A stretch of DNA of 64,000 bases from assembly GCF_012290005.1 (NCBI RefSeq), contig NZ_JAAXMS010000007.1, positions 41,991-105,990 of the forward strand, read 5' to 3'. Under the pieces are notes generated by a model. It was not told the origin of the DNA. It ran no database searches and worked only from the letters and a program-made list of their open reading frames with translations. Below are positions 50,260 to 63,143 of this stretch, piece by piece; within the stretch, counting starts at the first letter, position 1, and the number at the start of each line of letters is the position of its first letter. The translations under genes were made by a program, and so were the position numbers. The stretch comes from Crateriforma spongiae. Lineage in GTDB: Bacteria; Planctomycetota; Planctomycetia; Pirellulales; Pirellulaceae.

Positions 50260-51072
50260 TCATTCGCTGGGTGTTTTTAGGTTTCGGTAAAGCCAGCCGA
50301 AACCGCCGACCATTGCTGCGCAAAACGCGATCCAATACCAAGGGAAGCGTCGGGGCGTCGCCGCGACTTGGCCCACTGGTAACCCTTCCGCGTCAACATG
50401 GACAGCGGACACGGTGGCCTTCAAGGGTGTCGTCGTCTGTCCGGTTGTCGCCCAGATATCAATTTGTCCGGATTTTCCAACCGGGCCTGCAGCCCTGCAT
50501 AATTCTTTTGCCATCGCCCCGCCACTGGCACCAAAAAACGCATATTGTCCTTCGCCCAAATGGCGGATCTCCATCGCCGATGCACCCGATCGTGCAGGGA
50601 ACTGTTGATAGGTTGATTCACCGTCGCGTTTGCTATTGACGAACATGATGATTTGACCGCCTGGTCGACGCACGTGGCCGATCGTCGTGATGTTCGCATC
50701 ATCGCCAAAATGGATGCGGAAGAGGATTCCCACACCGCCGCCCCTGGGCGGCGTGTCCGCCTGGGTCAACGTGTAATTCAGACGGGCCGTGAAAACGCCA
50801 TCCAACTTGAACCGGCTTTTGAAACCAGCCGTGTTCATCGGCTGGGCACCATCACCGCCGCGATAGTTGGTTTGCCAACCACCGCGATCCAGTTGGAAAT
50901 GTTCCAATGCCGGATTGTATCGACGCATCCATGCCGGATCACCGAAACTTCCGGGGCCAAATTGATGCGTCAATTCCGTGGCATTGACGGGTTGGGGAGG
51001 CATGATGATTGCCCCCAACCAGACACAGGCACTGACCGTCGTGATGATGATGTTTGCTGATCGCCTATTCAT
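50260..51072 (-). CDS. Hypothetical secreted beta-rich protein with C-terminal membrane anchor
   Basis: Signal peptide MNRRSANIIITTVSACVWLGAIIMPPQPVNA and C-terminal TM WYWIAFCAAMVGGFGWLY. Its start overlaps the upstream stop by 8 nt. Confidence 0.55.
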   Translation of the reverse strand: MNRRSANIIITTVSACVWLGAIIMPPQPVNATELTHQFGPGSFGDPAWMRRYNPALEHFQLDRGGWQTNYRGGDGAQPMNTAGFKSRFKLDGVFTARLNYTLTQADTPPRGGGVGILFRIHFGDDANITTIGHVRRPGGQIIMFVNSKRDGESTYQQFPARSGASAMEIRHLGEGQYAFFGASGGAMAKELCRAAGPVGKSGQIDIWATTGQTTTPLKATVSAVHVDAEGLPVGQVAATPRRFPWYWIAFCAAMVGGFGWLYRNLKTPSE

Positions 51073-51958
51073 TTGATTGTTCCGTTTCGCGACCGGCTGG
51101 ACTTAGCAGTCCTCGCAACACCAACCAATCGATTTGTCGTGAGACAAGATCTGCTGAACCGTCCAGCCGTGCAAACACGGCGCCGCCCGGATGTGACGAA
51201 CCCCAGTTGTGTTTGTATTCAATTTCGGGCTGATCGGGCTGGATCAGCACGCCGTCCCGCACCGTTCCACGGCTTCCGCCGGTAAAAATCGGCTCGTCCC
51301 AATACCAACTGGTCTCCGTTTGCACCAAAGGATCAAACGCTTTTTCACCGAAAGCGATGGTCTGACTCAAGCCGTCAATGATGTGCGCCGGTCGCAATGC
51401 TTCGGGATAATTCAGCATAATCATCCCATTGCCGGCATAATCGGTTTTCGCCCAAGCGCGACCGCCGGCATCGTATTCCCCGTTTTCATCATCGACCGGC
51501 GGCAGCGGTTCGCCTCGCGACCGACTGGGACAACGAAACAGCGGTCCCGCGTTTTCGACACGGATGCTTTGATGTGATTCCACTTGCTCCACCATGGGCA
51601 AAATCGCATAGGCCCAACTGCCGGTCTGTTTTGTGGGATGCGCAAACGGTATCCCAACGCCCCACCAAAACCGTTGATCGATCTGTCGATCGAAGGTTCC
51701 GACCCTGACCATTTCACCGTCGGTATTCTTGATGCGGCTTTCGCCATCGTCGCCACCGTTACCCGGCAGGTATTTCATCCGGTCGATGTGCATTTGAATC
51801 CCCAATCCCAACTGTCGGGATTGGCTGAGGCATTGCGCGCGTCTTGCCGCCTCGCGCGCCGATTGCGTCGCCGGTGCCAGCAACGATATCAGAACGGTCA
51901 CGATCGAAATCACCACCAACAATTCGATCAGGGTAAAACCACTACGGCGATACATCAT
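51065..51958 (-). CDS. DUF1559 / prepilin-type N-terminal cleavage-methylation protein (H-X9-DG family)
   Basis: GFTLIELLVVISIVTVLISLLAPATQSAREAARR. C-terminal HPGGAVFARLDG is H-X9-DG. Confidence 0.85.
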   Translation of the reverse strand: MMYRRSGFTLIELLVVISIVTVLISLLAPATQSAREAARRAQCLSQSRQLGLGIQMHIDRMKYLPGNGGDDGESRIKNTDGEMVRVGTFDRQIDQRFWWGVGIPFAHPTKQTGSWAYAILPMVEQVESHQSIRVENAGPLFRCPSRSRGEPLPPVDDENGEYDAGGRAWAKTDYAGNGMIMLNYPEALRPAHIIDGLSQTIAFGEKAFDPLVQTETSWYWDEPIFTGGSRGTVRDGVLIQPDQPEIEYKHNWGSSHPGGAVFARLDGSADLVSRQIDWLVLRGLLSPAGRETEQSNE

Positions 51959-54047
51959 GGCTCATTTCCTTATGCTTCGGCACCGCGACAAGGAAGCGTC
52001 CTGCGGTGTCGCGCTGGCGAAAGGCTTCGGGGTGATTCTGGATCCACTCGGGGACCAGTGCATAGGTTTTGGTCCAGTGGCGGTCTTCGTGAAAGGTCAC
52101 AATGATATCCGGCTGCCACTGGTGAATTTCCTGTTGGACTGCATCAAGCGTTGGCATGTACAGTGGCCGGACCACATCCCGCTGCCGGTACGAACCCAGC
52201 AGTGAATAATAACGGTAAAAACATGCCATGATCCGCGGTTCGGATTCGTCCACCATGGCGGCGTCGATCGTACTTTGCCAAGTCGGACGAGTGTCTCGCG
52301 CCGAATAGAAGGACTCATATTGACGGTGCCAGGTCAGCGAAGCGTACGCAACGCCCACGAAAACAAGCCCGGCACAGGCGATCCCTGCGGTGCGCATGTG
52401 ACGCGACAGCCAGCCCTTCGATTCACAAGCAATGAAGTAAATTAGGGCGATGTCGACGGTTGCCAACGGCCAAAAGAACCATGCTTCGCCCGCGTCCCGG
52501 GCAATCGACTTCATCTCGATCCTGAACATCGTCGGCCACGCCGTCAGTCCCATGGCCACCGTCGCATGAAGAATGACGTCCACACCGACCAAGACGGCCA
52601 CCACGATGCCCAGGAATTGCCCCAGTCGACCGCGATGCCATGCGACAGTGGCAAAGCATAATACGGTCGCGATCGCCGCCAGCGCGAAACCGAAGCGGAC
52701 GCTGTGGTAACGCATCGCCAGCATGTTCTGCGTGCCAAAAACCGTTTCAATCACGTTGGGCGTCATGACATAGACGCACGTCGAACCCAGCGTCAGCCAT
52801 GCCAGGAAAACCAGATAGTTTTGCTTCGGCTTTGACCACCAGTAATACAGTCCGATCGGGATCGAAACGCAAACGCCGGTCATCGTCGCCAGCCATGTCG
52901 ATGGACCGTCCTGTTCAGCCCAGGCCCAAGACAGCTTGCGGAAAATCTCCGCGTCGCCACCACGCATCAAGGTGCTGAATCGATTTCCCGGCCTCATCGC
53001 ATCCCATTGATCCGCCATCCCCAAGGCTTTGAAACCTTTTGGAAACAATGGTGTGCCTTCCAGCAGCCAGTTGCGACCGTACCACACCCCCGCCAACAAA
53101 ACGATCGCAGTCACGCAACACGTCAGCCAAGTCGCGGTCGATTTCCATCCGCCGGTCCGCAGTGCAAAGGCGGCAACGACGCCGACGACCACCAACGCAT
53201 AACCGATCGCGTAGTATTTGATCCCGAACAACAAACCGATCGACATCGCCGCCAGGTACGGTAACCGTTGTCGATCGTCGGCCAACCAACGCCATGCGAA
53301 ACAAGCCGCGGAAACAAGCAAGGTGGCGACGGCCAGGTCGTTCTCTTGGCTGATCAACTGTCGACTGACCACCGATGTGGCCGACACTGAAAAACAGGCC
53401 GCCAATCGCATCACGGCGGGGACTCGTGCGTCGATCAAGGCTTCGTTGACCACACACAACAGCAACAAAGCGACAAAAAGATTGGTCAATCCGGCAAAGA
53501 AATCCCCGCTATAACCGGCGACCCAAAAATAGGTGACCAATTCGTTGTTGCCCGGAACATACCAGAACGCACAACGTTGATTGAATAAGTCGGCGGTCTG
53601 GATCCAGTGATCCACGATGGGCAGGTGATAGGCCAATGAATCCCAGTCGACCGGATACCTGGAAACGCCATACATCAACACGTGGGCGATCATCGATGAA
53701 ACCATCAACGCCGATCCCAACCGCACGGCCCTTTGACGACCGGACTTGCTGAATATTCGCATGCCTGTCGGCCGCCCATTGCGCGTCGGCGGGAACCACC
53801 GTCGAAAAGCGAAACCGATCACAGCCAACGAAAGCTGAAACACCCAAGGGTGAAACATTCCCAAAAAGCCCGAAAACGATGCCACCAAGACCACGCACGA
53901 CCAGACCACCACCAACGTCGCGGCGAACCGAGACGTCAGTCTGTCGGGAACTTGCAACGCGGCAAATCGGTGGCTGCCGGACACCAGCAGCCCGACCGAC
54001 ACCGCCCAAAGCACCGTCCAAGATAGATCCCAAACTACGACGAACAT
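51942..54047 (-). CDS. Large polytopic membrane protein (GT-C / ArnT-PMT-like glycosyltransferase candidate) with C-terminal soluble domain
   Basis: About 15 or more hydrophobic helices followed by a ~130-aa hydrophilic tail. Start trimmed to the ATG at 54047 (MFVVVWDLSW...), overlapping the sulfotransferase stop by 13 nt. No catalytic motif confirmed. Confidence 0.5.
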   Translation of the reverse strand: MFVVVWDLSWTVLWAVSVGLLVSGSHRFAALQVPDRLTSRFAATLVVVWSCVVLVASFSGFLGMFHPWVFQLSLAVIGFAFRRWFPPTRNGRPTGMRIFSKSGRQRAVRLGSALMVSSMIAHVLMYGVSRYPVDWDSLAYHLPIVDHWIQTADLFNQRCAFWYVPGNNELVTYFWVAGYSGDFFAGLTNLFVALLLLCVVNEALIDARVPAVMRLAACFSVSATSVVSRQLISQENDLAVATLLVSAACFAWRWLADDRQRLPYLAAMSIGLLFGIKYYAIGYALVVVGVVAAFALRTGGWKSTATWLTCCVTAIVLLAGVWYGRNWLLEGTPLFPKGFKALGMADQWDAMRPGNRFSTLMRGGDAEIFRKLSWAWAEQDGPSTWLATMTGVCVSIPIGLYYWWSKPKQNYLVFLAWLTLGSTCVYVMTPNVIETVFGTQNMLAMRYHSVRFGFALAAIATVLCFATVAWHRGRLGQFLGIVVAVLVGVDVILHATVAMGLTAWPTMFRIEMKSIARDAGEAWFFWPLATVDIALIYFIACESKGWLSRHMRTAGIACAGLVFVGVAYASLTWHRQYESFYSARDTRPTWQSTIDAAMVDESEPRIMACFYRYYSLLGSYRQRDVVRPLYMPTLDAVQQEIHQWQPDIIVTFHEDRHWTKTYALVPEWIQNHPEAFRQRDTAGRFLVAVPKHKEMSHDVSP

Positions 54048-55063
54048 GCCTGCGATACTGATCGATTGATCAGCGCTGAACGATTGAAGATGCCTCGGCC
54101 GTCTCTCAAGCGGTAAGCCATTTCGGAACACCACACAGCCGGCGGCAGGCCAATCAACGAACGAGCCAGTGAAGCATTGGCGGCAATCAGGTCGGTCATC
54201 GAACACCCACCGCCGTTGGTCGCTACACGATCGTATCCGATTCGATCCATGGTTTGTCCGCAAACACGCTCCACCGGCTCCGCGATGGCGGCACGATTTC
54301 GCCGCCAAGCGGACACCCGGGCAAGGTCGGGCGGATTCAATGCCGTCTGCTTCCAGGCCCGTTCGCGTTCGGGAAAGCAAGAGGCATCGTGGACGCTAGG
54401 CCGCTGAAGCGTCGAAAGAATCGATTCGTCCGCCGACAAACCCAAGAATGTCAGTGCATCGGCAAGTTCCTGTTCGGGACGCGTGACCAACCGTTCGAAA
54501 CGCACCCAGCAAATACGTCGTGGCCAACGTTCGGCCGCGTCCAACAAGCGACGCTGTGTTCGGTCCCAAAGCAATGCCGCACCTCGCACGCTGGTTCGCA
54601 GCCACGGAACGCCCGTCAGGCTTAACGCCACATCCCGTGGATCACGCACGACGAATATCCAACGGCTATCGGGAAAGACTTCATCGATCCAGTCCAGACG
54701 GTACGAGTACTCAGGAGTCTTGTCGCCCAACAAACATTGCCGCTGCGGCGCGTGCCCGACATCGGTCGTCGACACGCGGTTCCGATCGATTCCGTGACTT
54801 GGATAAAGTCGATGCAAGTAGGCATAGATCTCATCAACTCGGCGATCGCCACGCAGCATGTCGGCGGGAAAGGCGACCGAACAATCCGATTCAATCCGTC
54901 GAAGCGTCTTTCGTCGGACCCATCGGGGGCAACCGTGATATAAGAAAAACAGCTTCAGCTCCGGAGGCACCCAAGCATGCGGGTGTCGGTTCAACAACAC
55001 CTGCAGGAAAGTGGTTCCGGATCGCGGGCAACCGACGACGAAGAATGGAAACTGGCTGGACAT
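54035..55063 (-). CDS. Sulfotransferase-family protein
   Basis: 5'-PSB loop FFVVGCPRSGTTFLQ and 3'-PB region FVVRDPRDVALS. Start trimmed to the ATG at 55063; upstream in-frame ATGs exist. Confidence 0.75.
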   Translation of the reverse strand: MSSQFPFFVVGCPRSGTTFLQVLLNRHPHAWVPPELKLFFLYHGCPRWVRRKTLRRIESDCSVAFPADMLRGDRRVDEIYAYLHRLYPSHGIDRNRVSTTDVGHAPQRQCLLGDKTPEYSYRLDWIDEVFPDSRWIFVVRDPRDVALSLTGVPWLRTSVRGAALLWDRTQRRLLDAAERWPRRICWVRFERLVTRPEQELADALTFLGLSADESILSTLQRPSVHDASCFPERERAWKQTALNPPDLARVSAWRRNRAAIAEPVERVCGQTMDRIGYDRVATNGGGCSMTDLIAANASLARSLIGLPPAVWCSEMAYRLRDGRGIFNRSALINRSVSQACSS

Positions 55064-55375
55064 CTGGGAAAAAGGTACGCGGGATTCTTCGCCCAGCAAG
55101 TTAAAAGAAATCCGACTCCGGCCGGTCTTCACCGAAACGTCCGTTTTTTTCCAAACGCCCGGTTCTTTTCCAGCCGCCTCGCTGAGCAAGACCTCCTTGA
55201 ACGCATCGCGACTGATCCTAGCGACCCGGACCGAGCGCATCATACGCCAACCGTGTGACGCAGAATCGACGGACACGTGTCAGCGGCAAACCGAGGTTTT
55301 TTTGACCGCCTTCCCCGGTGGGTGTACAGTTACTGGCTTCCAATTCAGGCAACCGATCCACCGTCTGTCGCGTTG

Positions 55376-55407
55376 GCAGGGGTGCAGGGGTGCAGGGGTG
55401 CAGGGGT
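55376..55407 (+). repeat. Four perfect tandem copies of the octamer GCAGGGGT (a G4N4G4N4G4N4G4 quadruplex motif) abutting a start codon
   Basis: gcaggggt x4 spans 55376..55407. The G-runs are at 55379-82, 55387-90, 55395-98 and 55403-06. An ATG at 55409 follows after 1 nt. Confidence 0.9.
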
Positions 55408-55408
55408 G

Positions 55409-56218
55409 ATGCAAAAACTGGAGCCACAAGCGGGGCAGCTGGCCAAAATCGACCGACTGGCCATTCAATTGGCCGAAAGCGACGATTTGGCGGAAGTCGC
55501 GGAGATCCGAGACAAGTGCGCGTTTCTTCAGGACATGGCGAAAACCGTCTTCAGAAACCTAGACGCCCAGAACCGCGCCGCGGCCAGCAAGCTGCGAGCC
55601 GAGCGGAAGGCCGGCAAGATGCTTGCCGCGATGCGACTTCGTGGGGGCGACCGCCGATCAAGTGGTCACGGCGACCGTTTGAAATTGCACGATCTAGGGA
55701 TTTCTCATAACGATTCCAAACGCTGGCAAAAACGCGCTTCCATCCCGGATGAATGGTTCGAAGCCTATTTGGCGACCGCGGAGAAGCTCGGTGAAGAGAT
55801 CTCGGCAAGCGGTTTGGAACGAACGGCCAGAAAAGCCGAAAGGGCAACCCGGTCCGAGGAGGGTTCGTCCGTGTCGGCCAACGATGGCTGTGCGAAAGAG
55901 GCCAGAGATGGCCCCGCAAATGAAAATACCAACCGCCCGGATGATCGTTCTGAAGTAAAAAGCCCTGCCCGCGACGAGGAAGTTTCAGAGCCGAGCCCCA
56001 GCGGCGTCGCGCTCCTCGGGCACGCGGATGAAATACTTGGCAATGCAAAGGGTCACTGCGACACCTTGGCTCGTCTGGTTTCTCCGTTGGCACAAGACCC
56101 GGACGCAGAATTGTTACCCGCCACGCGGCGAGGGTTGGTCCGTTATGTCGACGAATTGCAGCGGACGCTCAACGAATTATTGAACCTATCCGAATCAAAA
56201 AATGAATGCAGATCATAA
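55409..56218 (+). CDS. Hypothetical protein resembling a prophage/plasmid-borne helical protein family
   Basis: The pattern AEIRDKCAFLQDMAK...NRAAASKLRAERKAGKML...KLHDLGISHNDSKRWQKRASIPDEWFEAYL recalls proteins I associate with phage/plasmid ParB- or methylase-linked regions. This is from memory only. Acidic, disordered C-terminal half. The ORF could start further upstream (55277). Confidence 0.45.
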   Translation: MQKLEPQAGQLAKIDRLAIQLAESDDLAEVAEIRDKCAFLQDMAKTVFRNLDAQNRAAASKLRAERKAGKMLAAMRLRGGDRRSSGHGDRLKLHDLGISHNDSKRWQKRASIPDEWFEAYLATAEKLGEEISASGLERTARKAERATRSEEGSSVSANDGCAKEARDGPANENTNRPDDRSEVKSPARDEEVSEPSPSGVALLGHADEILGNAKGHCDTLARLVSPLAQDPDAELLPATRRGLVRYVDELQRTLNELLNLSESKNECRS

Positions 56219-56988
56219 CGGGATGCTGTTGGTGTTTCCTATCGATCCAGCCTGGCATTGGGCAGCAGCCAGGTTATGCACGGCAGGGCTTTCCGTCAGA
56301 TGCACGATGGTCAACCGCATCGATTGGCGTGCGGGGCCTGCCAGGCGTTCACCCTGCTTTCTCAAAAACGCAAGTCTCGGGGATTCACGAGATCGGCGGG
56401 GATGCTCTGGTGAACGGTTCACTTGAACCCAATCGTACTTTTGGGACGGAGATTTTTGGGTTCCAGGAATTGACGGGCGAACGATCTGGCCCTGTACGAA
56501 GTCCGATGCGGCGTTGGCGCAAGCTCTTCCGAAAATGGTCAGAGTTGACCGGTTTCCGATTCTGCGAAAGAAAATGTCTTGAATCTTCGAAGTTTTGACA
56601 CTTCTCTTGTGGGAAAAGCCTTCGGGGACCTTAAGTTTGCGTTCGTAGTTTCGGTGCCGCAATCTGGAACTTCAGCTATACAAAATTGCGGGTAAGTACA
56701 AAGACACGAGGGCCAGTTTGGCCCGCCGGCGCGTTGCCGTTTCAAAGTTTTTGTCGACGCGTGTGTTCAGGCATGGTTTTTCCATTGTTTTCGTCGTCAA
56801 TCCGCACTGCAAGTTGATGTTGGTCTATTCGTGAGTGATTCGCAAATTGCAGGTCTGGCACCCTGCATCGTGAGGCTCAGTCAATTTCCTTGTGCCTTCA
56901 TGGTTTTTCGGAGGCCCTTGGCGTGTTGATTTGTATTGCGAAATCGCCAGCTGTGACAAGAAACGACAATTGCCTGGATCGTGTTGAT

Positions 56989-58125
56989 ATGTTGAATAAG
57001 CAACGCCCGAGAATGGTCGACCGCAATCGTAAGGTGGCTGGCACCATCGCGTTGGCCTTCTTTTCCTACGCAGTTGGGACTGTCAGAGGCGAGGGGATCA
57101 ATCTGACTCAGGCCGAAGCTGCGACTCAGGAGAAATTTGAAAAGGTCAACCGCCAGTTTCAGGTTTCCTATGTGGTGACGCAGAAATTTGTTGGCGAAGC
57201 AGAGAGATTTGCACCGGCTCACGTTGGTAGCAACGGCACTATGGAGCGTCTCGCTTTGAAATGGTCTGCCGTTCACGCATGGGATCGGCCATCAAAAAAG
57301 TACTATCATCAATTGGGAGCAGGTGCCTCCGCGGATGTTCCCTTCGCGAAGCCCGACGGACGTCGTAGTTTGATGTCCGATGGAGAATTGGCGTATCGTC
57401 TAACAGGGGCTGGCGATGGGATTCACGCCACTCGCGACATTGATTCGACCTTGAACGATCCCACCCGCGTTGGCTCCGATGATCTTTATCGGGAACTGTT
57501 GGGGATGGTGTCGGTTCGGGACGGCTTTGGTGTCAAATTGCGGGACCCGGCTCTTGAAAAGTATGTTTCGCTTCTTGACATTCTCCATGAAGGGTCATAC
57601 GCCGCGACCTGGGTGACACGGCGTGACGAACGCATGCTCAGGCTTGCTGATGAGGGTCGAGATGAAATATTCCTCGATCCGGCTCGAAATTTTGCTCTGG
57701 TCGAACGGGCGCATTATTGGAAAACCTTTCCGGGTGAGGTGCGAACCTCGCTCATTGTTGAGTCGTTCGAAGAAGTCGAGCCGAAGATTTGGATGCCAGT
57801 TCGTGTGAAACTTGAATACTTCTCGCAGCCTCCAAGTTCCGCACCGGTCGTCGAAGCGATCTTGGTTGCTTCGAAGATTAGCCTAACTCCCGATCCCATG
57901 TACTTTCGACTTCCTATCGAGAACGCCCCGGGCATCATCGATGAGGACCGAGGGATCGCCGTCGATATGGCTGATTTGGAAGGCAAGAGCGTTCGCGAGT
58001 TCCTCGACTCTCAGCCGCTGGCGGAAGGGTCGCGAGGTTTTTTCAGTGCACCTGTTCTTTTCGTGGTGCTCAGCAGTTTTCTGTTGGTCGCCTTTCTGAT
58101 CTTTCGCAGGAGAAGGGTTTTGTGA
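56989..58125 (+). CDS. Hypothetical secreted, C-tail-anchored protein (LolA-like/lipoprotein-sorting-fold guess); island paralogue A
   Basis: N-terminal signal/anchor VAGTIALAFFSYAVGTVRG and C-terminal TM FFSAPVLFVVLSSFLLVAFLIF followed by RRRRVL. Lower-GC region. Confidence 0.55.
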   Translation: MLNKQRPRMVDRNRKVAGTIALAFFSYAVGTVRGEGINLTQAEAATQEKFEKVNRQFQVSYVVTQKFVGEAERFAPAHVGSNGTMERLALKWSAVHAWDRPSKKYYHQLGAGASADVPFAKPDGRRSLMSDGELAYRLTGAGDGIHATRDIDSTLNDPTRVGSDDLYRELLGMVSVRDGFGVKLRDPALEKYVSLLDILHEGSYAATWVTRRDERMLRLADEGRDEIFLDPARNFALVERAHYWKTFPGEVRTSLIVESFEEVEPKIWMPVRVKLEYFSQPPSSAPVVEAILVASKISLTPDPMYFRLPIENAPGIIDEDRGIAVDMADLEGKSVREFLDSQPLAEGSRGFFSAPVLFVVLSSFLLVAFLIFRRRRVL

Positions 58126-58156
58126 CGGAGACGATGTACGTGAGCGGACCGACTCA

Positions 58157-59776
58157 ATGAAAAGAAAACTAGCATTTTTCGTGTGTGCGATGTTGGCGTG
58201 CGATGCGTATGCCTTGGAATCGCAACCTCCCCAGAGTGCTCAACGGTGGCGAGATGAGAGATGCTGTGGCCCGGTCAGTCTTTACGTACTTGCGAAATTG
58301 GCTGATCAGCCATTGGATTTGGAGGAGATCATTCGAATCGCCCCACCAAGCGACAAAGGCCGGACAAAAAGCCTGGGAACAGTGGGGGCTTTCCTTGCGG
58401 CGTTTGTTTATTTTCTTTGTAAGATGGTGCGTCGTGGAGTAAGAAAAGCGTTGCTGAAAAGTTTTGTGACCGATGGCACCCGAGCGACTGGTCTGATTCG
58501 GGGGTGGCGTCTGCCATCGTCGCTGACTCGATCAAGTTTCTTCAAGCTCGCCATTTTGTACTGTGGGTTTGCATTTGCTAACGAGCATGCGTGGGGCGAA
58601 CATGTGTTGCCCCGCTCCGTTAGGGCAGCTCTTGAGCAAAACTCATCGCTGTTTTCGAAAGCCAGCATTACTGGTCAGAAGAGTCGAAAAATAATTTCTT
58701 CGATTGAAGACGTAAAAAGCTTGTTTGGAACTCTTGAATCGCGGGACGAGTTCGAGAAAACGCTTGGTTTTGAGCTGAAGTTCAACGGGCCACTTTTTCG
58801 AGAGTCCGTGGTGCACCCCCCGGGGGCCTACTATGCGAGTGAACTCGTAAATGAAATATCTTACGATGGACAAAAGTTTTATCACGGATCGAAAGATCTT
58901 AGTGATCCTGCTTTGAGCAGCGTGTTCGTCTACACGCCGGAGATAGCCACTTCGCGACAAGAGCGCATGGAAGGCCTGGACTATTTGGCATCGATGGAAT
59001 TTTGGTATCTCGATGAAATTGGTTTTAGGGGGCCACACTCCGTGGCGGAGCTTGGTCAGCCGGTTAAATCTGTCATTCTCGATGCTGAGAATCGCGGGAA
59101 AGTCATTTCAGTTGAAGACCTCAGCAACGGGGCAATGGAGTTGATTGAGGTCATCATCGAGCAGCCAGAGCCCTGGCAGAGTCAGATGACATTTGACATC
59201 AAAACGCATGAGCCCTTTGCACTTTTGACGGGCAGTAGTCGCGAATTGCAGATGCGCATTGAGCAAGAGCGGCGAGAGTTGCTGGGAGATAGCCGGAAGA
59301 TTCGATATCGTCTCAGAAAGTCCTTGGGTTACGCCGTCGAAGAGAAATGGGTTTCGAGAGCTTCCACAGGTGATGTTATGTTTCACACGCGGAATTCGGA
59401 CTTTTTGCAAGTTGGCTCAGCTAACGCTTGGATTCCAAGGCGATGTGTCGTTGCGTCATTCGCCTACGAAACTTCTCCTTCATCGATTGCACCTGCGGCA
59501 GTGTTTCAGACTCTGATTGAGATCGTTTCCTATCAAGCGATCGAGTTGGGCAACAGCGAATTCAAGATTTGGTACGACGAAGCCGGTGTAAGGGTTTCCG
59601 ATTGGACCAGTCCGCGAGCCACCCTCGAGGATGCGGATTTCTATCGTGTTCCAGCTTCAATTTTTGATATGCCCCAAAAGTCGCCGTTGATAAGAAATGT
59701 TTTGATTCTAAATTTGATTGTCGTTTTGGGTATTGTCGGGTGGTGGGTTTATCGAAAGAATCGAAAAAACACCTGA
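58157..59776 (+). CDS. Hypothetical chimeric protein with signal peptide, short peptidase-C39-like fragment, TM segment, paralogue-type domain and C-terminal anchor; island paralogue B
   Basis: MKRKLAFFVCAMLACDAYA signal. ERCCGPVSLYVLAKLADQPLDLEEII resembles the N-terminus of C39-like domains. TM VGAFLAAFVYFLCKMV. C-terminal TM VLILNLIVVLGIVGWWVY followed by RKNRKNT. Confidence 0.55.
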   Translation: MKRKLAFFVCAMLACDAYALESQPPQSAQRWRDERCCGPVSLYVLAKLADQPLDLEEIIRIAPPSDKGRTKSLGTVGAFLAAFVYFLCKMVRRGVRKALLKSFVTDGTRATGLIRGWRLPSSLTRSSFFKLAILYCGFAFANEHAWGEHVLPRSVRAALEQNSSLFSKASITGQKSRKIISSIEDVKSLFGTLESRDEFEKTLGFELKFNGPLFRESVVHPPGAYYASELVNEISYDGQKFYHGSKDLSDPALSSVFVYTPEIATSRQERMEGLDYLASMEFWYLDEIGFRGPHSVAELGQPVKSVILDAENRGKVISVEDLSNGAMELIEVIIEQPEPWQSQMTFDIKTHEPFALLTGSSRELQMRIEQERRELLGDSRKIRYRLRKSLGYAVEEKWVSRASTGDVMFHTRNSDFLQVGSANAWIPRRCVVASFAYETSPSSIAPAAVFQTLIEIVSYQAIELGNSEFKIWYDEAGVRVSDWTSPRATLEDADFYRVPASIFDMPQKSPLIRNVLILNLIVVLGIVGWWVYRKNRKNT

Positions 59777-59785
59777 TGTATTGAA

Positions 59786-60317
59786 GTGTTATTGTTCATG
59801 GTGTTTCAGATTCTAGCTTTTCCTGTGGGGGGCTTCGAGAGAGTTTTACCGGTGTTCGATGAAAGCATGACTGCGGATCAGCTTGCGGAGTTTCTAGTGC
59901 TTCATCATGATGCGTTGAAGTCGCTGTCGTTGGTTTGTCAGACTTTTCCGCAGAGTATTGAAGATGAGCCTGAAGGGCATTATTGGCGGAGGACAGTGTC
60001 GGTGAATGGATCGAAGTTGATGTATAGGAGTGACAATGGTCATGGGTATTTAAGGCTGCCCTGGGGATTTGATCCGTTAAAAAAAGACGTTCGTAATGGA
60101 CCCCGATGGCTCTTTGGCATTTGAACATGTAAATCGGAAGTTCACGGAGTGTCAGTTTCGTGCCGGCAATGCGCCGCTTTCGGTTCATTTTTGGCGTATC
60201 GCGATGGCTTTGGGCTCTCCTTGGATGCCTGTTGACGGTGTTGTCCGAGCGTTTTGTCTCACGTTGATCAATCGCGTACTGCCATGTGATTGGTTTGGCA
60301 ATTCCTCGGGGTATTGA
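59786..60317 (+). pseudogene. Probable frameshifted or truncated remnant of an island paralogue
   Basis: Two short ORFs (59786..60124 and 60096..60317) overlap by 29 nt in different frames. There is no signal peptide and no C-terminal anchor. The first ORF resembles the N-terminal mature region of paralogues A and D. Confidence 0.35.
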
Positions 60318-60375
60318 TCCAATCTATTCGCTTGTAAAATCTATTTGAATCGAATTATCTGTTGGGAGATTTTGG

Positions 60376-61545
60376 GTGGAGCGGTTAAGTATGCAGTGTC
60401 GGGTGCTGGTTTGGAAACGGATGCTTCCGATCGCTCTCTTGTTTTTCTGTCCGCTGACAGAGTCGTGGGGGTTAGAGCCAGCCGACGCATTCGAAAGGCT
60501 CTACGGACGACGACTTCAGTGTACGAAAGCGGAAGTGACCGCGAAGTGGACGGTCAGAAAATCCGCGACCGGTGAGACTTATGGTCTGGATCTAAGCCCG
60601 CAGCAGGGATTGGCCAAGATTGCCTTCGACGACGAGGTGCCGATATGGCAGTTGAAAATGGAACGCAATCAGGTTGTCGGTTCGAGATTTCATCGAGATA
60701 CTCCTACAACCAGAAGGCAGATAAACCAAGATAGCTTTTTGCTCGCTGTCGAGTTGGAGAATGACAGGTACTTCTTTAACCCATTTTATATGGGAGCGTT
60801 TCTGTATACGGCACCAAGAAACATTCGTCCGCCGAGGGTTAGTTTTGATCGAATGTACCCTTCGATTCATCCGCGGATGGTCGGCTTGTTTTCATTAGAG
60901 AGTTTTCTTCACGGTGTTTCCCATCAATCGATGGATCGCCGGCGGGAGTGGTCAAAACAACCGAGTACGAAATGTATTGAGACTGAAAATGGGTTTCAAA
61001 TTGTTGGTCCCTCGTCGACCGGACAGCAAGTGGAATACTCCTATGATACGAAAGATGAGCCAATTTTGAGTATTGTGCGAACGATCGGAAGAGTATCCGA
61101 AGACGGCAACTTCGTTCTCGCCGGTGAACCCTGGGCAGTCTTAAAGACCGAACACAGGGAGTTCGGGAAGGCCGTTCTTCCGATCCACGCGAAGCAAGTT
61201 CAGACCGAATACAAGGAGGCCTTTAAAGAAGAAACGAGGGAACCCGTCCATGTTTTGGTCAAAACGGTGATTGATCTGGAACTCGATTGGGACCACGTGA
61301 ATGACAACGACTTCTCGCTCACGAGTGACTACCAATCATGGGGCCTGCCTTCCGGTACACGTGTGCTGGACGCGTCGAAAATGCAGCCAAACACAATCGA
61401 TCGAATCGCAGTGACGTCGATCAAACCACGGAAGCCAAAACCGAATGGATTGCCAGTAATCATCATCCTGTCTTTCGTCACGGTGGGGCTTTTGGTTTGT
61501 CGTTTCCTTTATCGTTGGTGGAGCAATCGTAGGCTTAGTATGTGA
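60376..61545 (+). CDS. Hypothetical secreted, C-tail-anchored protein; island paralogue D
   Basis: Signal RMLPIALLFFCPLTESWG and C-terminal TM LPVIIILSFVTVGLLVCRFLY followed by RWWSNRR. Same architecture as 56989..58125. Confidence 0.55.
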   Translation: MERLSMQCRVLVWKRMLPIALLFFCPLTESWGLEPADAFERLYGRRLQCTKAEVTAKWTVRKSATGETYGLDLSPQQGLAKIAFDDEVPIWQLKMERNQVVGSRFHRDTPTTRRQINQDSFLLAVELENDRYFFNPFYMGAFLYTAPRNIRPPRVSFDRMYPSIHPRMVGLFSLESFLHGVSHQSMDRRREWSKQPSTKCIETENGFQIVGPSSTGQQVEYSYDTKDEPILSIVRTIGRVSEDGNFVLAGEPWAVLKTEHREFGKAVLPIHAKQVQTEYKEAFKEETREPVHVLVKTVIDLELDWDHVNDNDFSLTSDYQSWGLPSGTRVLDASKMQPNTIDRIAVTSIKPRKPKPNGLPVIIILSFVTVGLLVCRFLYRWWSNRRLSM

Positions 61546-61554
61546 AGGCGTGAA

Positions 61555-62814
61555 ATGCGCTCCCGGCGAAACTCGACGACCGTGCTTCGTGCCGTCGCGA
61601 TCGGAGTTGCGGTGATAGCTTCGATTGCGATCGCTGATCGACGCTATGGAGATTCGCTTCATTCCTGGCGATTAAGTATCGAGTACCGAGTCGGAACAAA
61701 CTTCGTTGATACGGGGCAGTTTGCAAACGCGTTTTCCGACGAAAGTGGTCCGACGGGTTGGGTTGCCCCGATTCCGACCGTCCTGTTGGGTGTGGTTTGC
61801 AAGGCAATGAATCACGATGAGAAGCGGATATCGTTTTTTGTTTTGTTGCTAAATGCGTTTTGTTTGTTTTTGGGGGCCTTTTTCGTAGCAAACGGTGATC
61901 GTGTCGGGTTCTCGGTTCCCGTTGTCATCATTCTCTTGACTGCGTTTGGCTTTGAACGCTTGCTGCGTTATCAACCGGAAATCCTTTGCGTTCCAGCGAT
62001 CTCCTTGTGTTTTTTCAGCGCAGGCGAATCGTCTTGTCGATTGCTTCGTCTTTCCAAGCGGAAACTGCTTGTTGCGAAATATCTGAGCCAGAGTCTAGCT
62101 ATCTTAATTTCGCCTATCGTGGGTCTTGCGCTCACAGTGCACTCCGCCGTCGGGTTTGGTCGTGCGCATGGTAGATTTGTGAAAACGGCGTTTGCCTTGT
62201 CGTGCGTCCTTTCACTTGGGTTGGTAATCCTGTGCTCAGTTCGGAACTGGTGGGTTGTCGGGTTGCCAGGATTCGTTAAGACCAACGGTTGGTACGAACT
62301 GTACCAGTCCCAGGTTCTGGATGATGACGGCGTGTTGGATGCGATTACACTTGATCAGCATCCCATTTCGGTGAATTCAAGGGCCCACCTTGATTACTGC
62401 TCAGTTGGTGAAGCCCAATTCATTCGGCAATCCCGAAGTCGCTGTATTGAAGCGATATTACGTAGTCCACTGGAATATTTGAATCGGGTTGTGTACCGAT
62501 TGGCTTCGTTGGTTTTGGGCAGTTTCGTGTTCTGTGGCCAACTTCGACATGCTGATGTGTTTCGTCTGATGGTGTTCGGCGCGGTGCATGGAACAATTGC
62601 TTTCCACTTGGTGGTTCACCCAAATCGCAAGCCGTCTTTTGACCACGCTGTGTTTCTGATTGCACTCTTGGCGGCGCCGTATGTTCTTGTGTCGTTCTAT
62701 GAAAGGTACCGCATCATCTTTTTTCCACCCGTCTATGTTGCGTTCCGATTGTCCATCGAGGCTCTCGCCGGATGTTGGTGGCGACGGGGCCCTGCCATCA
62801 ACCCAGGGATGTAG
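61555..62814 (+). CDS. Polytopic membrane protein (GT-C-like candidate), hypothetical
   Basis: About 10 hydrophobic helices. The N-terminal loop with SGPTGWVAPIPTVLLGVV resembles the first periplasmic loop region of ArnT/PMT-type enzymes (weak). It starts 10 nt after the upstream stop. Confidence 0.5.
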   Translation: MRSRRNSTTVLRAVAIGVAVIASIAIADRRYGDSLHSWRLSIEYRVGTNFVDTGQFANAFSDESGPTGWVAPIPTVLLGVVCKAMNHDEKRISFFVLLLNAFCLFLGAFFVANGDRVGFSVPVVIILLTAFGFERLLRYQPEILCVPAISLCFFSAGESSCRLLRLSKRKLLVAKYLSQSLAILISPIVGLALTVHSAVGFGRAHGRFVKTAFALSCVLSLGLVILCSVRNWWVVGLPGFVKTNGWYELYQSQVLDDDGVLDAITLDQHPISVNSRAHLDYCSVGEAQFIRQSRSRCIEAILRSPLEYLNRVVYRLASLVLGSFVFCGQLRHADVFRLMVFGAVHGTIAFHLVVHPNRKPSFDHAVFLIALLAAPYVLVSFYERYRIIFFPPVYVAFRLSIEALAGCWWRRGPAINPGM

Positions 62815-62827
62815 TGTTTCATTCGTC

Positions 62828-63143
62828 GTAGGCCACGTGGTGGGTGACGGGAAGCTGATTCGACGTGGGCAAAAAGGTGTACCCGTTGGCTTACCGGCGT
62901 GGTTGTCATGCGGAGCATGACCTACGGATGTAGGTCACGCTGTGCGTGACGGGAACCCAGATTCGACGTGGGCAAAAAGGTGTACCCGTTGGCCTACCGA
63001 CGTGGTTGTCATGCGGAGCATGACCTACGGATGTAGGTCACGCTGTGCGTGACGGGAAGCTGATTCGACGTGGGCAAAAAAGGTGTACCCGTTGGCCTGC
63101 CGGCGTGGTTGTCATGCGGAGCATGACCTACGGATGTGGTGAC
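62828..63143. repeat. Tandem array (~2.9 copies) of a 102-103-nt highly structured non-coding unit
   Basis: Units at 62844..62945, 62946..63048 and 63049..~63143, with only a few substitutions or 1-nt indels between them, plus a degenerate partial copy at ~62828..62843. Each unit carries gtcatgc-gga-gcatgac, tgacctac-ggat-gtaggtca and gtcacgc-tgt-gcgtgac. The array lies between convergent genes. Confidence 0.9.

Follow-up and report, generated by a model that had tools for sequence, protein, structure and literature searches.

The window studied here is a 64-kb stretch of DNA from Crateriforma spongiae, a planctomycete (Planctomycetota) of the family Pirellulaceae (contig NZ_JAAXMS010000007.1, positions 41,991 to 105,990, forward strand). 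Near its right end lies a cluster of genes, here called the island (56400-62815 in all composition tests), whose open reading frames (ORFs) we label A, B (with its main body B'), r, C, and M. Our results demonstrate that the genes of the island form a structurally unstable cluster of foreign composition, which occupies a fixed site in Crateriforma. Judged by sequence comparison, the copy in the window is a rearranged, largely dismantled version of a cassette that recurs in several genera of planctomycetes. The ORFs of the island are as follows.

56989..58125, + strand: A, with a signal peptide, a ~330-aa periplasmic domain, a C-terminal transmembrane (TM) helix, and an RRRR tail
58157..58360, + strand: B residues 1-68, a signal peptide and an N-terminal C39 peptidase stub, which retains the CCGP cysteine but not the part with the catalytic histidine
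58361..58528, + strand: B residues 69-124, which join the C39 stub to B' through a hydrophobic helix, a basic loop, and former spacer sequence that is now translated
58529..59776, + strand: B', ~415 aa, with a former signal peptide, a LolA-like periplasmic domain, a C-terminal TM helix, and a basic tail
59786..60124, + strand: r, a 112-codon stub corresponding to the N-terminal third of a LolA-like anchored protein of type D (see below); a pseudogene
60376..61545, + strand: C, with a signal peptide, a ~320-aa domain, a C-terminal TM helix, and a basic tail; a genus-restricted orphan under relaxed selection
61555..62814, + strand: M, 419 aa, polytopic, with at least six hydrophobic segments

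Composition and proteins of the island

The GC content of the island is 0.505, compared to 0.573 in the rest of the window and 0.549 to 0.593 in control windows of the same size. Its tetranucleotide L1 distance from the bulk is 0.342, about twice that of the largest control (mean, 0.121; maximum, 0.175). By both measures the island has the deviant composition of foreign DNA. The GC content drops at about 56400 and recovers at about 62800, and GC at third codon positions (GC3) is 0.50 to 0.57 in the island ORFs versus 0.61 to 0.69 in the flanking genes. An initial annotation, made from the sequence alone, had proposed a lower-GC island, and this is confirmed; its hand counts had the direction right, but their contrast (38 to 47% versus 60 to 62%) overstates the computed one (~50% versus 57%). 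The spacers along A-B-r-C-M are 31, 9, 251, and 9 nt, and the spacing of 10 to 60 nt given for all of the genes thus fails between r and C.

The ORFs themselves agree with the earlier description. A, B, and C have one architecture in common, which had been recognized correctly: a signal-like segment at the N terminus and, at the C terminus, a hydrophobic helix with R/K residues behind it. The proteins had been termed tail-anchored and secreted. Given that A, B', C, and nearly all of their relatives have N-terminal signal peptides, and that basic residues follow the C-terminal helix, the topology is that of type-I membrane proteins with a predicted periplasmic domain. As had been noted, the proteins belong to no characterized family; curated models (Pfam and NCBIfam) cover none of A, B, C, and r, nor do they match X1, D, or the small peptides introduced below. 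Pairwise BLASTP among A, B, and C detects nothing.

B had been regarded as a simple member of this trio. Its product (58157-59776, 539 aa) is identical to WP_168566368.1 of Crateriforma spongiae, and residues 1-68 are 98.5% identical to the N terminus of an intact 195-aa Peptidase_C39 gene (PF03412, E 2.3e-16) in L004, the corresponding locus of another Crateriforma genome. B is therefore a chimera, in which a 68-residue C39 N terminus is fused to the ~415-aa B' body. The segment carrying GHYVVV, with the histidine, is absent, and the window's B has no C39 match in Pfam. Codon 121 of B (58517-58519) is TCG in the window and TTG in two other Crateriforma loci, L001 and L002. The TTG is probably the native start of B'; initiation there would yield a native-looking B' precursor, MSLTRSSFFKLAILYCGFAFA. 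Because the window has TCG at this codon, B's own start is apparently gone in its strain, which would rely on the fusion ORF or on an in-frame ATG at 58424 in the linker. This peptidase fusion had been missed by the initial annotation, as had a deleted peptide gene behind the noncoding gap upstream of A (see below).

Homologues of B' are present in metagenome-assembled genomes labelled Gimesia, Bythopirellula, and Schlesneria and in metagenomic contigs. They are 41 to 50% identical and 411 to 424 aa long, and all have the signal peptide, the C-terminal helix, and the basic tail. A profile search of 1.84 billion representatives (cut-off, E<=1e-3) identified a B' family of 431 proteins (cluster representatives). 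B' itself matches the family profile end to end with 316 bits, and the C-terminal helix is present in 121 of the 127 full-length members. The shared module, a domain of ~370 aa between the signal peptide and the C-terminal TM helix with its basic tail, is marked by W-L-P-x-x-C ... F-x-L-x-Y-x-x-P-G-T-x-V-x-D, and a W-x-x-x-x-N feature is conserved inside the helix.

A belongs to the same superfamily according to hmmsearch (31.6 bits, co-linear segments) and hhalign (97.4%, E 1.4e-11), and BLASTP matches it to one family member, P0118 (E 5.5e-7); a word-index search finds no homologue of A outside Crateriforma. The pseudogene r is 46 to 53% identical to residues 1 to ~107 of D proteins (363 to 384 aa) of L006, L012, L016, and L019, four loci outside the genus in which D follows a B' homologue. 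The D proteins have the same architecture as B', and hhalign links their family to the B' superfamily at 93.8 to 96.1%. Another protein with this architecture, X2, which is encoded in some Crateriforma strains, is borderline (52.9%). C has no significant link to the B' and D families (hhalign 10%), and the word-index search finds no homologue of it outside Crateriforma. The homology of A and D to B' is seen only with family profiles, pairwise BLASTP being blank. By profile comparison, true but remote paralogy thus unites A, B', and the protein from which r derives, and C shares the architecture only. The family of paralogues proposed earlier therefore stands for the former three and loses C. 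Likewise, r is a remnant, as described, on the evidence of its identity to the D N terminus and a ratio of nonsynonymous to synonymous substitution rates (dN/dS) of 1.04, but it is truncated rather than frameshifted.

The fold of this superfamily is probably LolA-like, as had been guessed; this is supported, not proven. Proteins of the LolA type are built as an unclosed antiparallel beta-barrel with a helical lid. The guess agrees with a weak predicted structure and finds no counterpart among curated sequence models, in that LolA-type models (LolA, LolA_like, MucB_RseB, DUF4367, and similar models of Pfam and NCBIfam) match none of A, B, C, and r. The B' family profile has no match among PDB sequences. 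For A, a single-sequence AlphaFold2 model reaches a predicted local distance difference test (pLDDT) score of only 37, and its fold is assigned solely through its homology to B'. A motif offers a lead: the C terminus of LolA proteins carries F-x-F-x-P-P-x-G-V-x-V-x-D, which resembles F-x-L-x-Y-x-x-P-G-T-x-V-x-D of the B' family. The island proteins differ from LolA, LolB, and RseB (MucB) in being about twice as long, with an ectodomain of ~370 aa, and in their mode of attachment: LolB has a lipid anchor, and LolA and RseB are soluble proteins, but the island proteins are held by a C-terminal TM helix with a basic tail. They are also encoded beside C39 peptidases, outside any LolCDE context, and are not matched by the LolA, LolA_like, and MucB_RseB models.

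M had been described as a polytopic, GT-C-like membrane protein. It is polytopic, but the GT-C assignment could not be reproduced: M has no Pfam or NCBIfam match at E<=1 and no PDB match, and hhalign against PMT_2 proteins of the cluster gives 0.3%. The only support for the label is the name 'RgtA/B/C/D-like' that UniProt gives to M orthologues. The C termini of A, B, and C have a tripartite look and a polytopic protein of no known family stands at the end of the operon, which raises the possibility that the helix and basic tail are a cleavable sorting signal (PEP-CTERM/exosortase or LPXTG/sortase), that M is the sorting enzyme, and that A, B, and C become covalently attached to the surface. 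We consider this highly improbable. No PEP, LPXTG, or GlyGly motif precedes the helix in A, B, C, or the family alignment, where the conserved W-x-x-x-x-N lies within the helix instead. M and the neighboring genes match no exosortase or sortase model of Pfam or NCBIfam (M none for archaeosortase or rhombosortase either), and M is absent from the cassettes of other genera.

A fixed site with variable content in Crateriforma

We compared the window with five further Crateriforma loci, L001 to L005, of which L002 is from C. conspicua (CP036319). In all six genomes the cluster occupies the same place, upstream of a gene for a 260-aa DUF4190-like protein and lpxB. It is therefore not a strain-specific insertion; whether the island is an insertion had been posed as a question by the initial annotation. 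The synonymous divergence (dS) of A is 0.10, within the range of the flanking genes (0.03 to 0.24), and the cluster thus predates the split of these strains. The conservation among relatives that had been set against the idea of an island holds for the site, which is constant in the six genomes, but not for the content, which is polymorphic.

Two content haplotypes can be distinguished. One, common to the window, L001, L002, and L003, has the following segment.

58361..60332, + strand: haplotype-specific segment of 1.97 kb, replaced by 4.44 kb in L004 and L005

Its left breakpoint is 58360, the end of the C39 stub in B. The 4.44-kb segment encodes the remainder of the 195-aa Peptidase_C39, X1 (371 aa), X2 (371 aa; signal peptide, C-terminal helix, and basic tail), and a PMT_2 GT-C glycosyltransferase (586 aa).

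Beyond this exchange, each strain has its own lesions. In L001 and L003, B is split by a 1-nt deletion at 58816. In L002, B' is interrupted by an IS3-type element (HTH_Tnp_1 plus rve; L002 5909-7199), with an overlap of 4 bp (window positions 59045-59048). In L002, L004, and L005, C ends at codon 352, which is TGA, and thereby loses its anchor, and in the same three loci a stop (codon 45) and a 1-nt indel (61834) disrupt the N-terminal part of M. Conversely, a segment of ~320 bp is absent at 56712/56719 from the window, L001, and L003; in L002, L004, and L005 it encodes a 105-aa secreted Cys-rich peptide. The 770-nt noncoding gap upstream of A, which had been reported correctly, results from the deletion of this segment. 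The values of dN/dS are 0.18 to 0.20 for A, ~0.5 for B, 1.04 for r, 0.41 to 0.94 for C, and 0.33 to 0.37 for M, compared to 0.07 to 0.25 for flanking genes. A is the sole island gene under clear purifying selection. With these lesions and the 1.97-kb versus 4.44-kb polymorphism, 'decaying' is a fair description of the window's cluster, and the rapid turnover that had been suggested is evident. Recent recombination between species across the island was also considered and rejected, as the contrast is too weak: identity to L001 is ~99% to the left and inside and 97 to 98% in the right flank.

The features that border the island are listed below.

55277..56218, + strand: 'up', a 313-aa ORF of normal GC content that adjoins the island; truncated in L002
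56219..56988, no strand: noncoding gap, from which the ~320-bp segment with the Cys-rich peptide gene is missing at 56712/56719
62828..63137, no strand: tandem repeat, 103 bp x3, at the right edge of the island between the convergent M and 260-aa DUF4190-like genes

Atypical composition, internal rearrangements, an insertion sequence in one strain, and a weak TnsC-like match in 'up' could point to a remnant of a prophage or integrative and conjugative element, or to an antiphage defense island. The upstream ORF had indeed been called phage- or plasmid-like, and the locus had been connected with conflict. Searches with PHROGs and PADLOC and by tblastn against phages and plasmids were negative for all proteins, except for that single TnsC-like PADLOC match (E 0.0055); 'up' itself has no Pfam, PHROG, phage, or plasmid match. 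Neither label can be upheld. No tRNA, integrase, or flanking direct repeat was found within the window, and all products of the island are envelope proteins, so that this explanation is close to refuted. The locus resembles genomic islands and plasticity zones in its deviant GC and tetranucleotide composition, its strain-variable content, and the insertion sequence in one strain, and differs from them in the constancy of its site in the six genomes of the genus and in that the window lacks an integrase, a tRNA, and direct repeats.

Several further observations concern the borders. A micro-repeat, GCAGGGGT x4.1, encoding GVQGCRGA units, lies inside 'up' (window 55376-55408); the L004 orthologue has four peptide repeats, and the repeat number thus differs among strains. 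The structured tandem repeat had been noted before and is present. Window positions 62853-63112 are absent from L002, L004, and L005, and its copy number is thus strain variable; one 103-bp unit folds with -41 kcal/mol (z -2.2), and searches of Rfam gave no matches. In the left flank, beside a sulfotransferase gene, are a DUF1559-type (N_methyl/SBP_bac_10) pilin-like gene (51065-51958, - strand) and a gene (51942-54380, - strand) whose product, a large membrane protein, matches no family. DUF1559 genes also border the cassette in L006, L007, L010, and L019, a co-occurrence that may be due to chance because such genes are very abundant in planctomycetes. In L002, the sulfotransferase flank is missing to the left of window position 55877; its place is taken by a diverged X2-like fragment and a PMT_2-like gene (L002 1-2398), the latter encoding 591 aa with 45% amino acid identity to the PMT_2 protein of L004.

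The cassette in other planctomycetes

When genome and metagenome contigs were scanned with the B' alignment, they yielded only four and three true loci, respectively, so that the statistics on the cassette rest on few loci. A compact cassette recurs in L012, L016 to L018, and L019. It consists of genes for an X1-like protein, a Cys-rich peptide, two C39 peptidases (C39a and the degenerate copy C39b), B', and D, and its position in three of the loci is as follows.

L012 158-5680: six-gene cassette (X1, Cys-rich peptide, C39a, C39b, B', D)
L016 267-5825: six-gene cassette, same genes
L019 4165-9634: six-gene cassette, same genes

The X1-like proteins have ~400 aa and are 26 to 29% identical to Crateriforma X1. 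X1 is alpha-rich and marked by the motif QxxDG(S/G)W, and its profile has no match among PDB sequences. The small peptides are Cys/Gly-rich, secreted, and 98 to 130 aa long. In a related neighborhood, L007, an A-like protein is followed by C39 ... B' ... PMT_2; no small peptide gene was found upstream of the A-like gene there. Small membrane proteins sharing 'LEILLVLAFLALLFQVFP...LDVRxW', with no family match, recur beside the cassette (L006 3136-3480, L007 4462-4680, and L007 7282-7704). In a literature search, neither the family nor the cassette turned up.

Over all loci, the cassette encodes five kinds of proteins, all predicted to face the periplasm: a small Cys/Gly-rich peptide with a Sec-type signal, one or two anchored C39 peptidases, X1, at least two LolA-like type-I proteins (A, B', and D), and often a PMT_2 GT-C protein. 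In the window, the peptide gene is deleted, C39 is cut after residue 68 and is in frame with B', X1, X2, and PMT_2 are absent, D is reduced to the 112-codon stub, and C is drifting almost neutrally.

The GC content of the cassette is 0.49 to 0.515 in every host, with host flanks ranging from 0.50 to 0.63, and in L019 genes for an IS91 transposase and a phage-type integrase lie next to it. The constant value of ~0.50 across hosts, together with the low GC content of A, suggests that the island inherited its low GC from a mobile cassette and did not acquire it through decay; as the dS values of island and flanks are alike, acquisition would have preceded the divergence of the strains. Relaxed selection and AT-biased mutation in a native locus would fit the raised dN/dS of B, r, C, and M and the many inactivating lesions. 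However, A remains at a GC of 0.536 and a GC3 of 0.565 despite purifying selection, intact cassettes elsewhere are just as low (one of them with host flanks at 0.628), and the dS between strains, 0.02 to 0.10, is far too small for a 7-point GC drop. Decay is thus an improbable source of the low GC content.

Proposed periplasmic peptide processing and its alternatives

Domain content and domain fusions point to a function. Both PF03412 (E 2e-16 to 4e-17) and TIGR01193 recognize the intact Crateriforma C39 protein and its homologues in the cassettes. Because these proteins carry their own signal peptide and a C-terminal helix, they should, by the positive-inside rule, face the periplasm. In the small peptides of L012, L016, and L019 and the 105-aa peptide of Crateriforma, the signal peptide precedes a shared motif, P-G-x-x-V-x-x-x-E-[AS]-x-[AT]-x-[VI]-x-G-[GTA], which resembles the double-glycine leaders of ComC and lactococcin. 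Among 102 members of the B' family that were scanned, a C39 domain is fused N-terminally to the B'-type domain in 5 (including P0020, P0023, P0077, and P0118), and a complete extracytoplasmic function (ECF) sigma factor is so fused in 8 (including P0073, P0078, P0094, and P0114). P0020 is named 'predicted double-glycine peptidase' by JGI.

We consider it somewhat better than an even bet that the island is a degraded, horizontally acquired module for periplasmic peptide processing and sensing. In such a module, a pro-peptide would be exported by Sec, an anchored C39 peptidase would trim it at the double-glycine-like site E-A-x-A-[VI]-x-G-[GTA], and the LolA-like anchored proteins would bind, carry, or sense the trimmed product or an associated lipid. 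The main argument for the last role is the fusion of B' relatives to ECF sigma factors or C39. In the window strain the pathway is most likely nonfunctional, judging from its gene content, with A remaining as a stand-alone LolA-like envelope protein.

Known systems resemble parts of this arrangement. Like the C39 domains of the peptidase-containing ATP-binding cassette (ABC) transporters that export bacteriocins and other peptides (PCAT, also AMS), such as ComA and LahT, the cassette C39 proteins match PF03412/TIGR01193 and lie next to a small peptide with E...[VI]-x-G-[GTA]. The PCAT domain, however, is cytoplasmic and part of the transporter, whereas the cassette C39 is a stand-alone protein with a signal peptide and a C-terminal anchor, predicted to be periplasmic. 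The cassette also has no ABC transporter, its peptides have a Sec-type signal before the motif, and it has a second, degenerate copy (C39b); the window copy keeps only 68 residues and has no catalytic His. C39 'double-glycine' proteases are known elsewhere from the cytoplasmic side of ABC exporters. With ECF sigma factors that have sensory extensions, the likeness lies in the eight fused relatives, in which Sigma70_r2 and Sigma70_r4 are followed by membrane segments and then the B'-type domain; the window proteins have no sigma domain, and there is no ECF sigma gene in the island.

The main alternative is a module for envelope glycan or lipid modification. The LolA-like proteins would then serve the nearby GT-C (PMT_2, YfhO) and GT2 enzymes by holding polyprenyl-phosphate-linked sugars or lipid acceptors, with C39 and the peptide accessory or unrelated. 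PMT_2 genes do lie inside the cluster in L004, L005, L002, and L007, YfhO, GT2, and sulfotransferase genes lie beside it, and LolA-like folds (LolA, LolB, RseB, and LppX) typically bind acyl chains. On the other hand, the most compact of the conserved cassettes (L012, L016, and L019) have no GT-C gene inside, the domain fusions are to C39 and sigma factors and none is to a glycosyltransferase, and the GT-C identity of M was not reproduced. We therefore regard this alternative as unlikely, if less so than the other explanations considered.

Several points weigh against peptide processing and sensing by an acquired module. The LolA-like structure predicted for the family is a weak model (pLDDT, 50; predicted template modeling score, 0.41), with which Foldseek finds no match at E<=0.001, and none of the 102 family members scanned matches a LolA-type Pfam model. 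The peptide motif is built on four sequences, and its 'GT' or 'GA' departs from the canonical GG. Close B' homologues in Gimesia and Schlesneria have no C39 neighbor. The case for transfer of the island is its composition, the function of the cassette is wholly inferred, and C and M fall outside what this reading accounts for. Finally, the two haplotypes may go back to a longer ancestor that underwent two deletions, or one cassette may have replaced another.

A bolder extension is that the intact cassette constitutes an undescribed extracytoplasmic peptide system, in which a Sec-exported, Cys-rich pro-peptide is matured by periplasmic, anchored C39 and received by the LolA-like proteins, the sigma fusions being one-component peptide or lipid sensors. 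We regard it as speculative and rather unlikely in this full form. If true, the Crateriforma island would be a natural knockout series of this peptide system.

The window copy is mostly a wreck and of limited direct value; the value of the locus lies in the undescribed cassette to which it leads. The envelopes of planctomycetes are poorly understood, and most genes of these bacteria have no assigned function. The locus gives access to a large protein family, with at least 431 clusters at 50% identity, that lies outside Pfam and NCBIfam and whose members are anchored in the membrane, periplasmic, and probably LolA-like. The six Crateriforma genomes provide natural variants, with an intact peptidase cluster in one haplotype and fusion, IS-disrupted, and nonsense alleles in others. 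Gene neighborhoods and domain fusions link the family to periplasm-facing C39 peptidases, Cys-rich peptides, and ECF sigma factors, which suggests a testable hypothesis of envelope signaling or peptide processing.

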